Source: a virus
DNA length: 25,338 bases
Strand: one strand, 5' to 3'
Virus genome (UHGV): UHGV-0380352
Positions 5,166 through 7,397 of the stretch are shown here, in pieces (the first letter of the stretch is position 1; each line of letters starts with the position of its first letter). Below the pieces are notes generated by a model, which did no database searches, had not been told where the DNA came from, and saw only the letters and a program-made list of their open reading frames with translations. A program made the translations under genes and the position numbers.

Positions 5166-5188
5166 AAAGGGGCTTGCGCCCCTTTTTT
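5166..5188. terminator. Bidirectional rho-independent terminator between convergent acyltransferase and tailspike genes
   Basis: aaa-GGGGC-ttgc-GCCCC-tttttt: 5-bp GC stem (5169-5173 and 5178-5182) with A-run upstream and T-run downstream; sits exactly between the plus-strand stop at 5163 and the minus-strand stop at 5187-5189. Confidence 0.7.
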
Positions 5189-7397
5189 AGTATCCAACAG
5201 TCTGAACTGCCCCTGACCCAGATGAAGATGATTGAAGTTCCATGGTGTAATAACCATTAAGTGGCTCACCTTCCCAATCAAGGTTAATGCGTAATACATG
5301 GCCATATTTGGTTGCATTTGACTGGGCGATAAACCCTCCAGGCTTATCTATATCTCTCTGTGGCATCCCAGAATATACCTGATTTGCAGTATATGCCTTA
5401 TCAACAGCAGGAGCGCCAATAGAGGCGGTAATTTTAGGCCACGTTCCGGAGCTGTGCAGAACATCTACAGCATACCCGGTAAGCCCGGTTGATGTTCTCC
5501 TGATCAAACATTCAATATACCCACTCCCATGAGATCCGCCAATCGACTTGATAATCAGTTTTGCAGTACCGCAATCCCATGGATTTAAAGTCTGATCCCA
5601 ACATTCAGCCTTTAGGCCGCTAGGCATAGGAAAATCCACGCTGGTTAACACTGCCTCACCTGGCCATACTCCTCCCACAACTATTGGACTCGGTATCCTG
5701 ACACTCAATGTTTCTAAATATCCTCTTCCCCATCCATTATTTGTTTGTCTGGCAAGGTGCTCGTAAATTGGCCTTATTGTCAAAGCCTGAATAAACGCTG
5801 GCTTGGATGCTGACGCATCTGCTGCGTTATAAATACTGATAGTTTTCCATCCCCTACCAATCAGCGTACCAATACGCTTTTGCAAGGCATCAGAGTGATT
5901 ATTAGATCCACGATTTCGTGCTACAGTAACAGTGCTCTGAATTGCGTTATAGTTTGTTTGCACAAAACTATTTTGCTCGGCGAAAGCATAGTATGAAACC
6001 CCTATAGAGGGAGGGACCTCCTGTGGTTCAGAGAAGCAAAATGACAAATTAGATTCATCCAGCCAGCTACCAACAACATCAACTTCTGCTGCCTCTGCAT
6101 CAAGATAGAAACTGTATGACGTTCTAACATATTTTCCAGCATCAAACCCACCAATGATGCCTTGAAGCGTATATGTCTCGTAACCAAATCCCATTGTTAC
6201 ATTGTCAAAAGCATCAAAAAAACCAATCTGATCGCTCTGTTTGTATGGCCATACCGTTATTTCTGTAGATACTGGTCTATAAAACGGAAGCATTCCTCCG
6301 GCCATCATCATTGAACCAATTGCTTCAGCTATTCGTTGATATCCGACAGAGTTGAAGTGAATTGGATCTGATGCGATAGAACCATATGGGATATTGTATG
6401 GTATTTCATTTGCTTCGATATATGCACAACCATATACATGAGCTAAATTTCTGATTTCCTGCCCCCAAATTTGGAACTGTTGAATATTACCATGCTGCTC
6501 ATTACCACCTGCAACTGGCTGAAGAATAATAACCCCCATCCCCCAATCAATGAATCTACGAATGAACTTCTCCATATACGTTAAATACACGTCTATCGTG
6601 GTTGATGTAGAGTCATTTATCGCATACATAATAATTGCAACATCACAATTAGGATTATCCTGCCATGCTAAATATTCAAATCCTTGTTGTGCTGTCTGCC
6701 CGGATACTGCTCTAGTGATAGTTGTTACATTCCCACCGGTACAGATAGAAAGGTATCTTGCGAGCCTTTCTGGATAGGTTACATTAGCACGACGCGTTAA
6801 CCCTGTTCCGTTTGCATCTGTTGAGTTAGGATCCCAACCAAAAGTCTCACTATCTCCCTGACAAAGGATCGATAATCCAGACTTTTTACGAAGATTGAAG
6901 TGAGCCTTGGTAAGAGCATGAATATTTCTGTTTCTATAATCAGCGCTATCTGATGCCAAAGTAGCGTTGCCAAGATTTGTAATGTGCTCTTGAACAGTCT
7001 TCCCATCATCAGTTCCGATTAATAAAGATCCTCCTGATCCAGACAGTTCCTGTCGCAGTTGATCTGGATCATATTTAATTACATTAGGGTAATAAAATTG
7101 CAAACCACCAACAGCATCATACACCGCCATCGAATGGCCTTTCACAGTAACAAACTTGGCAATCTGTCCGTTATATACAGGGTAACCAGCAGCGTTAATG
7201 ATGATTGGTTGCGAAACAGGAACGTGAGAACCATCCTCATTATCCACATAAACCTGAATCTGGTTTTCAGGATTTACAGGGTCAGTGTCAATTTTACCGA
7301 TATAAATTTTGCCATTGGCTACGGCTTTAAAAGAACGCGCCATAGTGAAGAGTTGCGAAGGCATACTCACTACAACATTGGCTGTAATGTCTGTCAT
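5187..7397 (-). CDS. Tailspike protein: P22-type head-binding N-domain fused to an SGNH/GDSL esterase-type domain and a C-terminal domain of unknown fold
   Basis: 736 aa. Residues 1-110 ([40 protein letters not shown]...) match the conserved head-binding domain of P22/Sf6/HK620 tailspikes. Residues about 175-350 carry all four SGNH blocks in canonical order and spacing: GDSET (Ser183), SGQ (Gly233), AINDS (Asn261), DPIH (Asp344/His347). RBS GGAGC 7 nt upstream of the ATG. Last gene of the late operon. Confidence 0.85.

Follow-up and report, generated by a model that had tools for sequence, protein, structure and literature searches.

The gene at 5187..7397 of the 25,338-nt stretch of viral DNA analysed here (the window) encodes the tailspike of a P22/Sf6-like prophage, and its esterase module most likely deacetylates a surface polysaccharide while leaving the chain uncut, a reading to which we assign a probability of roughly 0.8. 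It is supported by the domain architecture of the protein, its invariant catalytic residues, end-to-end homology to other tailspikes, a matching fold and the virion-gene context. The gene and its parts are as follows.

5187..7397, minus strand: tailspike gene, 736 aa plus stop codon (ORF list, translation)
7059..7397, minus strand: P22-type head-binding (virion adaptor) domain, residues 1-113 (Pfam PF09008)
6876..7058, minus strand: neck/linker, residues 114-174 (AF2 secondary structure, homology)
6300..6875, minus strand: SGNH/GDSL esterase domain, residues 175-366 (PF13472, PF00657, AF2, Foldseek)
6843-6857, minus strand: block I, GDSET, residues 181-185, with Ser183 (translation)
6696-6704, minus strand: block II, SGQ, residues 232-234, with Gly233 (translation)
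6609-6623, minus strand: block III, AINDS, residues 259-263, with Asn261 (translation)
6357-6368, minus strand: block V, DPIH, residues 344-347, with Asp344 and His347 (translation)
5190..6299, minus strand: C-terminal beta-rich domains, residues 367-736 (phmmer, profile versus PDB, Foldseek)

The open reading frame begins with ATG, with GGAG 8 nt upstream. An identical protein is deposited at NCBI as EFB3762361.1, and Escherichia coli 23CRST047 carries the gene at 99.5% DNA identity under the annotation 'SGNH/GDSL hydrolase family protein'. Members of the corresponding database cluster were labelled either as tailspike or as SGNH/GDSL hydrolase. The Pfam family Head_binding (PF09008) matched residues 1-113 over its full profile with an E-value of 4.3e-64, Foldseek found 78-85% identity between the N-domain and the Sf6 gp14N structures, and in sequence searches the N-terminus also matched those of the P22, Sf6 and HK620 tailspikes. 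The prophage is intact and sits in E. coli at tRNA-Arg (argW). Its P22-like late operon is complete (gp16, gp20, gp7, gp14, gp26, gp10, gp4, coat, scaffold, portal, terminase), and the gene order runs gp7, gp20, gp16, tailspike, a convergent gene for an AT3-family acyltransferase, int and argW. The first-pass annotation of the protein as virion tailspike was thus borne out both by the head-binding domain and by the tailspike slot in this operon. From the conserved N-domain and trimeric homologues, we infer that the spike is a trimer attached to the gp4/gp10 hub. The neck that follows contains a long helix predicted by AF2 at residues 135-170 and represents the start of a module junction common to other adaptor types, with the motif LRxEL..GG..IGT..G.TVQ. 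P111, L118, G123 and A124 were nearly invariant in an alignment of 39 homologous sequences. In some 1,130 further E. coli genomes, DNA similarity to the tailspike gene ended at approximately codon 117-120.

All four SGNH blocks proposed in the first-pass annotation were present at the residues given there, and G181, D182, S183, G233, N261, D262, D344 and H347 were invariant in the 39-sequence alignment, whose members were 33-82% identical and which had only 16 invariant columns. The nucleotide positions fared less evenly: the SGNH region had been placed at 6332-6875, in agreement with the Pfam envelope at 6333-6857, while GDSET, placed at 6846-6863, actually lies at 6843-6857. Lipase_GDSL_2 (PF13472) matched residues 181-355 over its full length (profile positions 3-178 of 178, E 5.2e-11) with a score of 43.8 bits at a gathering cut-off of 32.9, and Lipase_GDSL (PF00657) also exceeded its cut-off (24.0 bits, cut-off 23.6). 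Judged from the sequence, the combination of motifs and domain match is far above chance. The AF2 model of the whole tailspike, which was computed as a monomer, had a pLDDT of 81 and a pTM of 0.74; strands and helices alternate at residues 175-366, where pLDDT was mostly 87-97. Structural matches of the SGNH domain in Foldseek were the acetylxylan esterases Axe2 and AlAXEase, TesA and others (E 1e-8 to 1e-5), and target-normalised TM-scores of 0.6-0.77 for Axe2, AlAXEase, TesA and IAH1 supported a three-layer alpha/beta/alpha flavodoxin-like fold. A beta-helix or pectate-lyase family was not matched in the Pfam search, and the NCBIfam search gave no match for the tailspike. Pfam, conservation, AF2 and Foldseek agreed in favouring an SGNH esterase domain over a beta-helix glycosidase, as had been suggested at the outset.

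The C-terminal domains form the far end of the receptor-binding module and are homologous to the corresponding part of the B2, Moo19 and SFP21A tailspikes. The description of the last ~380 residues as being of unknown fold could not be upheld, as solved structures exist for homologues that cover residues 97-723 from end to end. In phmmer, residues 97-723, 113-725 and 113-726 aligned with the proteins of this trio (E 7e-95, 8e-88 and 6e-83), and a family profile searched against the PDB found the structures of the same three proteins with E-values of 1e-198, 1e-184 and 7e-175. The top Foldseek matches for the tailspike model were likewise 9D84, 9D80/81 and 9LNA (E 8e-60 to 4e-53), with target-normalised TM-scores of 0.70-0.88 overall and 0.86-0.88, over 607-646 columns, for 9D81 and 9LNA. 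These three Shigella-phage structures were followed in the ranking by G7C gp63.1 and then by SGNH acetyl esterases.

Deacetylation of a polysaccharide is predicted because homologous tailspikes, none of them more than about 42% identical to the one described here, show measured esterase activity. The original proposal of deacylation instead of glycan cleavage is supported as a prediction in this way, and the reading of the tailspike as an esterase is well supported. In the mechanism that we consider most likely, the head-binding domain (residues 1-113) would fix the trimer to the hub of the tail. From about residue 113 the protein belongs to the B2 gp48 / Moo19 gp82 / SFP21A gp09 / g341c gp14 type of receptor-binding module, which consists of the neck helix, the SGNH esterase domain and the C-terminal beta domains. 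Ser183 would be the nucleophile, His347 together with Asp344 would serve as the base pair, and Gly233 and Asn261 would form the oxyanion hole. The spike would bind a surface polysaccharide with O-acetyl groups, the O antigen being the most probable one, and hydrolyse these esters; the polysaccharide chain would be left whole, and glycanase activity is probably absent. The binding site would be lost on deacetylation, and cycles of binding, deacetylation and release, presumably processive, would take the virion inward until it meets the outer membrane and ejection is set off by the tail needle. The same deacetylation would also free progeny from debris.

The tailspike was found in only 2 of 5,426 complete E. 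coli genomes; about 74 draft E. coli genomes carry the protein as well. Both complete genomes encode a rare O92-related ABC-transporter O-antigen cluster with an acyltransferase gene of its own; with an 'O92 family' wzm/wzt cluster it shared 74% identity, so that its assignment reaches O92-related only. A chromosomal acyltransferase gene (AC6I0E_RS22615) lies beside gnd, and the O-antigen cluster also occurs in strains that lack the prophage (ET76, TOE17, 600029 and 600055). The two carrier genomes are clonal, and the link between spike and O-antigen type therefore counts as a single observation.

The esterase might act on another acetylated polymer than the O antigen, namely capsule/K antigen, colanic acid or enterobacterial common antigen. 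Such substrates would fit with Klebsiella prophage SGNH receptor-binding proteins, which associate with capsule types (PMC13123978), and with Vi phages, whose acetyl esterases act on capsule (PMC7556043). We nevertheless regard this as unlikely, since the closest characterised relatives (B2, Moo19, G7C and c341) all work via the O antigen. The O antigen is also the classical receptor of P22-like phages. Colanic acid in particular is disfavoured by the degraded state of the corresponding cluster in the carrier strain, which is full of pseudogenes, and the phrog match named 'colanic acid degradation' spans the N-terminal adaptor only (residues 1-135).

We give still less credence to a dual activity, in which chain cleavage would fall to the C-terminal beta domains, leaving the SGNH domain as a mere accessory deacetylase. 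The epsilon15 protein gp20 pairs an endorhamnosidase with an SGNH 'petal' esterase (bioRxiv 10.64898/2026.07.31.742079), so a second activity may be present in the C-terminal domains of the tailspike, whose 370 residues carry no assigned catalytic function. However, the Pfam search of the tailspike found neither a beta-helix family nor one of glycoside hydrolases or lyases, no glycanase was among the Foldseek matches outside the esterase-tailspike family, and G7C gp63.1, alike in overall topology, keeps the backbone of the O-polysaccharide intact (PMC10743462). Least probable, and indeed very improbable, is an SGNH domain that is a catalytically dead binding module or a lipase acting on LPS or phospholipid acyl chains, as the Pfam family name 'lipase/acylhydrolase' and the name 'lysophospholipase L1-like esterase' in one database source might suggest, because a dead enzyme would hardly keep its catalytic and oxyanion residues strictly conserved in 39 homologues of as little as 33% identity, Axe2 and AlAXEase are among the best structural matches from outside phages, beside generic GDSL lipases and TesA, and homologues cleave an acetate ester and need O-acetylation (PMC11654681).

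Two further features lie beyond the 3' end of the tailspike gene.

4009..5163, plus strand: AT3-family acyltransferase gene (Pfam PF01757, E 2.2e-23)
5166..5185, no strand assigned: perfect 8-bp, GC-rich hairpin AAAGGGGC-TTGC-GCCCCTTT with A-run/T-run flanks (terminator scan)

The longest open reading frame of the AT3 gene extends from a GTG at 4000, but RefSeq and orthologues begin at the ATG at 4009. Its product is presumed to be a lysogenic-conversion O-acyltransferase, and the hairpin, by its sequence, is likely a bidirectional terminator that separates this gene from the convergent tailspike gene. Of the 5,426 complete E. coli genomes, the two with the tailspike were also the ones in which the AT3 gene was found. 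Orthologues in Yersinia and Cronobacter each adjoin an orthologous tailspike, with tailspike and AT3 identities of ~80% and 85% in Yersinia enterocolitica and of 81% and 70% in Cronobacter dublinensis. The pair persists in Y. enterocolitica in a prophage remnant without virion genes, and in L041 the tailspike module and AT3 stand behind a different N-terminal adaptor. Nine lineages of receptor-binding modules each have an AT3 of their own, and these are mutually unrelated. As a separate observation, the receptor-binding part and the convergent AT3 gene form a low-GC cassette that crosses genera and adaptor types.

One could imagine the esterase module and AT3 as an 'eraser and writer' cassette for a single O-acetyl mark, in which the prophage would write or re-position an acetyl group that is read and removed by its own tailspike family, and selection and exchange, from one phage type or genus to another, would act on the pair as a whole. 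We consider this doubtful. Adjacent AT3 genes were counted with a local HMM, co-directional genes included, for 13 temperate-type esterase lineages and 25 species-representative non-esterase P22-type loci, the head-binding domains being identified by phmmer with the N-domain of the query. AT3 was adjacent in 9 of the 13 lineages versus 8 of the 25 loci (p=0.04), or in 8 of 12 versus 8 of 25 (p=0.08), with lineages that are not independent of each other. AT3 genes are common beside non-esterase P22-type tailspikes too, and the enrichment is therefore borderline. Together with the non-independence of the lineages, this led us to demote a specific coupling of esterase tailspike and AT3 to a suggestive one. 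Simple linkage in the usual lysogenic-conversion slot explains most of the pairing pattern.

The tailspike adds one E. coli example to the receptor-binding proteins that deacetylate a host glycan rather than cut it, a design already documented by crystal and cryo-EM structures, enzyme assays, large-scale surveys and many database relatives. If the deacetylation reading is right, the host range of the prophage should hinge on whether a rare O92-related O antigen is O-acetylated. The phage further offers a P22-type, genetically tractable chassis for work on esterase-driven adsorption. The practical value of the gene is modest. A functional link between acyltransferase and esterase, for which present support is weak, would, if true, shed light on the way in which surface acetylation is written and read by temperate phages.

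Among known systems, B2 gp48 (9D84) and Moo19 gp82 (9D80/9D81) are homologous over the whole module at ~30-35% identity, have the same SGNH blocks and share the fold of the tailspike (TM 0.70-0.86, target-normalised). These are N4-like Schitoviridae tailspikes with different N-terminal adaptors that fit an N4-like tail, B2 gp48 acts in complex with gp49, and the phages are virulent, 72 kb in size and without a conversion gene beside the tailspike. Purified Moo19 gp82 and B2 gp48/49 hydrolyse 4-nitrophenyl acetate, an artificial substrate and the only one on which their activity was shown, and both phages fail on a host without oacD O-acetylation (PMC11654681). The SFP21A tail fibre gp09 (9LNA) has the same module at ~33% identity over residues 113-725 and gave the best structural superposition on the tailspike (rmsd 2.9 A, 607 columns, TM 0.88); a literature search found no publication on this structure. 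The same receptor-binding module also occurs in the T7-like tail fibres of Cronobacter phages Dev2 and GW1, Citrobacter phages SH3-5 and Shigella phage SFPH2. Fibres of the SFP21A type carry the T7 tail-fibre domain PF03906 at the N-terminus, and their phages are virulent.

The protein gp63.1 of E. coli phage G7C (4QNL), named at the outset as a known esterase tailspike, proved to be related by fold and not by detectable sequence. It shows the same overall topology with an SGNH domain (Foldseek E 1.5e-14, 683 aligned columns) at 11% identity, and its TM-score is only about 0.4 because the arrangement of the domains differs. 4QNL was missing from the phmmer matches (E<=0.01) and from the family-profile matches (E<=1), and we therefore rejected G7C gp63.1 as a member of the sequence family of the tailspike. 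Outside this family, it stands as an analogue in structure and mechanism, or else as a very distant homologue. The authors of the Moo19 and B2 structures note a 'highly similar topology' to it (PMC11654681). G7C gp63.1 deacetylates the O antigen processively without depolymerisation, and this activity is essential for infection (PMC10743462).

P22 gp9, Sf6 gp14 and HK620 gp9 share the head-binding domain (70-90% identical), the gene position and the virion role, but in the receptor-binding part they are right-handed beta-helix endorhamnosidases or endo-N-acetylglucosaminidases, of a kind that the tailspike described here lacks. The query-normalised TM-score of about 0.10 between the tailspike model and these spikes in Foldseek fits a superposition of the N-terminal ~115 residues only.

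The fusion of a P22 adaptor to an esterase had first been considered unusual, which the databases contradict. PF09008 and PF13472 occurred together in 30 of 120 clusters at 90% identity among the matches listed, from E. coli, Cronobacter, Yersinia, Citrobacter, Salmonella and Proteus, and one such cluster from Salmonella Anatum comprised 470 members. The tailspike belongs to the PHROGs family phrog_19528 (E 6e-129), and this family and phage g341c share the architecture. In the g341c tailspike (gene 14, ACN18293.1) a P22 head-binding domain is likewise followed by an SGNH esterase and C-terminal beta domains, and prophage tailspikes of S. Anatum in phrog_19528 are related to the g341c type with the same architecture. 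The g341c gene occupies the same slot in a P22-like (Lederbergvirus) genome and adjoins a convergent acyltransferase gene, with an annotated bidirectional terminator at the equivalent place between the two. The g341c tailspike is 38-42% identical to the E. coli tailspike overall and 30% in the receptor-binding part, and its host differs (S. Anatum O:3,10). Its acyltransferase has 640 aa, is recorded as an O-polysaccharide acetyltransferase and is 26% identical to the 387-aa AT3-only protein encoded in the window. The literature search yielded nothing usable that links g341c to c341, which we take to be the clear-plaque form of g341. According to later accounts of Iwashita & Kanegasaki 1976 (in PMC5380687 and PMC7556043), the 'base-plate part' of S. 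Anatum phage c341 deacetylates the O antigen without cleavage of the chain.

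The tailspike open reading frame (5187-7397, minus strand) was found to be intact, with an ATG start, GGAG 8 nt upstream and a product of 736 aa; the first-pass annotation had read the sequence correctly. Translation and Pfam searches placed the following features on the protein:

Residues 1-113: Head_binding domain (PF09008; Pfam, E 4.3e-64)
Residues 181-355: Lipase_GDSL_2 domain (PF13472; Pfam, E 5.2e-11; 43.8 bits against a cut-off of 32.9; profile positions 3-178 of 178)
Residues 181-185: GDSET block (nt 6843-6857, minus strand; translation)
Residues 232-234: SGQ block (translation)
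Residues 259-263: AINDS block (translation)
Residues 344-347: DPIH block (translation)

The residue positions first reported for the four SGNH blocks were correct, while their nucleotide positions had been slightly shifted, as for GDSET. The HMM search proposed as a check bore the SGNH domain out, with PF13472 above its cut-off over a near-complete profile, and the Lipase_GDSL profile of Pfam also scored slightly over its cut-off. No beta-helix or glycosidase family was matched in the Pfam search, in agreement with the earlier statement that a glycosidase beta-helix is missing. The combination of SGNH and head-binding domains in this protein is real, with matches far stronger than chance would give.

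The window covers the left end of a P22/Sf6-like prophage, which has inserted at a tRNA-Arg(CCT) gene (argW, 2150-2224) beside mlaA and yfdC. Its order is integrase, AT3 family acyltransferase (plus strand), tailspike (minus strand) and then late genes, with gp16-, gp20-, gp7- and gp14-like ejection proteins, needle, gp10, gp4, coat, scaffold, portal and terminase upstream of the tailspike, and Rz, endolysin, holin, two tRNAs and Q antiterminator further in. The two tRNA genes, tRNA-Thr(TGT) and tRNA-Asn(GTT) (23424-23579, minus strand), are prophage genes too, with the lysis genes on one side and the Q antiterminator gene on the other. From this gene order the open reading frame occupies the tailspike slot, which together with the PF09008 domain upholds its identification as the virion tailspike.

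Of 5,426 complete E. coli genomes, only two had the full gene (99.5% identity). They belong to the clonal strains 23CRST047 and 23CRST049, whose annotation calls it 'SGNH/GDSL hydrolase family protein'. In about 1,130 E. coli genomes the match is confined to the first ~117-120 codons, i.e. the exchangeable adaptor. An identical protein had already been deposited in NCBI (EFB3762361.1); its cluster comprises 74 E. coli sequences under names such as 'phage tailspike protein', 'SGNH/GDSL hydrolase' and 'lysophospholipase L1-like esterase'. The tailspike-acyltransferase cassette of the window is 99.5-99.8% identical to that of the 23CRST047 prophage (L001), but the two prophages differ elsewhere. 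Between window 12117-14236 and L001 18740-21643, the needle is a 233-aa ORF in the window and a 317-aa 'tail needle knob protein' in 23CRST047, and an HNH endonuclease gene beside gp10 occurs only in the latter. Such differences suggest that sequences around a conserved cassette have been exchanged in mosaic fashion.

PDB sequence matches to solved phage receptor-binding proteins, namely B2 gp48 (9D84; query residues 97-723, E 7e-95), the T7-like tail fibre SFP21A gp09 (9LNA; 113-725, E 8e-88) and Moo19 gp82 (9D80/81; 113-726, E 6e-83), spanned the neck, the SGNH domain and the entire C-terminal region with every catalytic motif aligned; the remaining PDB sequence matches, to the Sf6 and P22 tailspikes, were N-terminal only. 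The ~380 C-terminal residues, previously described as of unknown fold, therefore belong to a fold that has been solved several times. An AlphaFold2 model of the monomer (39 homologues; mean pLDDT 81, pTM 0.74, esterase domain mostly 87-97) gave the same picture. Foldseek against the PDB matched it to 9D84 (E 8e-60), 9D81 (E 2e-56; TM 0.86 normalised to target), 9LNA (E 4e-53; TM 0.88, rmsd 2.9 Å, 607 columns) and G7C gp63.1 (4QNL; E 1.5e-14, 11% identity), and then to Axe2, AlAXEase, TesA, IAH1 and other SGNH esterases (E 1e-8 to 1e-5). The tailspike family profile did not reach G7C gp63.1 by sequence, which excludes that protein from the sequence family and leaves it as a structural analogue or a very distant relative.

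The fusion to a P22-type adaptor, which the first-pass annotation had considered unusual, turned out not to be so. Among the 120 best 90%-identity clusters of a 5.8-billion-protein collection, 30 carried PF09008 together with PF13472, from E. coli, Cronobacter (81% identical), Yersinia enterocolitica (80%), Citrobacter, Salmonella and Proteus, one Salmonella Anatum cluster alone having 470 members. The same receptor-binding module stood behind PF18668 in 13 of the 120 clusters, and a further five had no N-terminal Pfam domain recorded (three of them named phage tail fibre proteins). Related viral contigs likewise showed PF18668-type and T7-type (PF03906) N-termini on this module, and a dedicated PHROGs family, phrog_19528 'tail spike protein', matched residues 1-630 (E 6e-129). 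From these counts, the P22-type adaptor with SGNH is one standard combination of a modular tailspike repertoire, joined at a conserved neck motif (~111-124). The tailspike is an uncharacterised protein of a kind already documented structurally and biochemically.

Next to the tailspike lie:

4009-5163, plus strand: AT3 family acyltransferase gene (PF01757; Pfam, E 2e-23), convergent with the tailspike gene
5166-5185, between the two genes: perfect 8-bp GC hairpin with an A-run on one side and a T-run on the other (likely bidirectional terminator)

Both genes fall in a low-GC block (3600-7400; AT3 gene 35-40%, tailspike gene 40-45%, rest of the prophage ~50%), which would fit horizontal exchange of the two as a cassette. 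No convincing gene was seen in the 460 bp between int and AT3 (3541-4000; 35% GC). The pair is shared by the two complete E. coli genomes named above, is kept in Y. enterocolitica (tailspike 80%, AT3 85%) and C. dublinensis (81% and 70%), and in one locus (L041) follows a PF18668-type N-terminus (receptor-binding module 75% identical, AT3 70%). Unrelated AT3 genes take the same place in other esterase lineages, including the P22-like phage g341c. AT3 neighbours accompanied 9/13 esterase tailspike lineages versus 8/25 non-esterase tailspikes (p=0.04; alternatively 8/12 versus 8/25, p=0.08), the latter being intact P22-type loci from species-representative genomes. Since AT3 was also downstream of these 8 control tailspikes, the enrichment is only borderline. 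The AT3 gene is most simply read as a lysogenic-conversion gene of the ordinary kind, placed where such genes usually lie. A functional writer/eraser pairing is a possible but less likely alternative; a similar idea was floated speculatively for Serratia phage BZS1 (PMC7556043).

In three Y. enterocolitica contigs (L003, L004 and L005) the orthologous pair sits in an apparent prophage remnant that keeps an integrase, a few early genes and a gp16 fragment of at most 220 aa. From those early genes to the tailspike there are no head, portal or ejection genes; the esterase spike and the acyltransferase have stayed intact after loss of the virion genes. The Y. enterocolitica protein occurred in 47 indexed blocks of the assembly collection, and 24 carrying contigs were read. 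Beside a 48%-identical esterase tailspike (P0007) in another E. coli prophage (L008), the convergent downstream gene (7527-8576, minus strand) is not an acyltransferase; its 349-aa hydrophobic product had no Pfam match and is possibly another kind of O-antigen-modifying enzyme.

By homology, the N-domain would dock the trimer on the tail hub. The SGNH domain would then bind acetylated polysaccharide and hydrolyse its O-acetyl esters, with Ser183, His347 and Asp344 as putative catalytic residues and Gly233 and Asn261 as the oxyanion hole. If G7C is a guide, deacetylation might lower affinity, and cycles of binding and release would bring the virion to the membrane with the chain uncut. The deacylation predicted earlier is well founded in homology to esterase tailspikes, fold and invariant residues.

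The most probable substrate is O antigen. The O-antigen cluster of 23CRST047 (L012, record 4529643-4548757) is of a rare ABC-transporter type (6 of 5,426 complete genomes; 74% identical to an 'O92 family' wzm/wzt cluster) and has its own acyltransferase gene adjoining gnd; as the two carrier genomes are clonal, its association with the tailspike counts as a single observation. Capsule or another exopolysaccharide as substrate has a low probability; the colanic acid cluster of this strain is interrupted by IS3 and contains several pseudogenes. That the C-terminal domains also have a glycanase activity, like that of epsilon15, whose gp20 has an SGNH 'petal' too (bioRxiv 2026), appears improbable as well. 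A dead or lipolytic SGNH domain is likewise unlikely. Only 16 columns were invariant among 39 homologues (33-82% identity to the query), and these include G181, D182, S183, G233, N261, D262, D344 and H347, which speaks for an active enzyme and against a relic.

Purified Moo19 gp82 and B2 gp48/49 hydrolyse 4-nitrophenyl acetate, and both phages fail on a Shigella host without the gtr locus and oacD, an O-acetyl transferase acting on GlcNAc (PMC11654681). G7C gp63.1 strips O-acetyl groups from O antigen without depolymerisation in a reaction that is essential and appears processive (review PMC10743462). Deacetylation of O antigen was reported for tail parts of the Salmonella Anatum phage c341 (Iwashita & Kanegasaki 1976, as cited in PMC5380687 and PMC7556043). 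The sequenced phage g341c, with host S. Anatum, also has a tailspike of head-binding and SGNH domains. We take c341 to be a clear-plaque derivative of g341. The g341c tailspike is 38-42% identical to that of the window.
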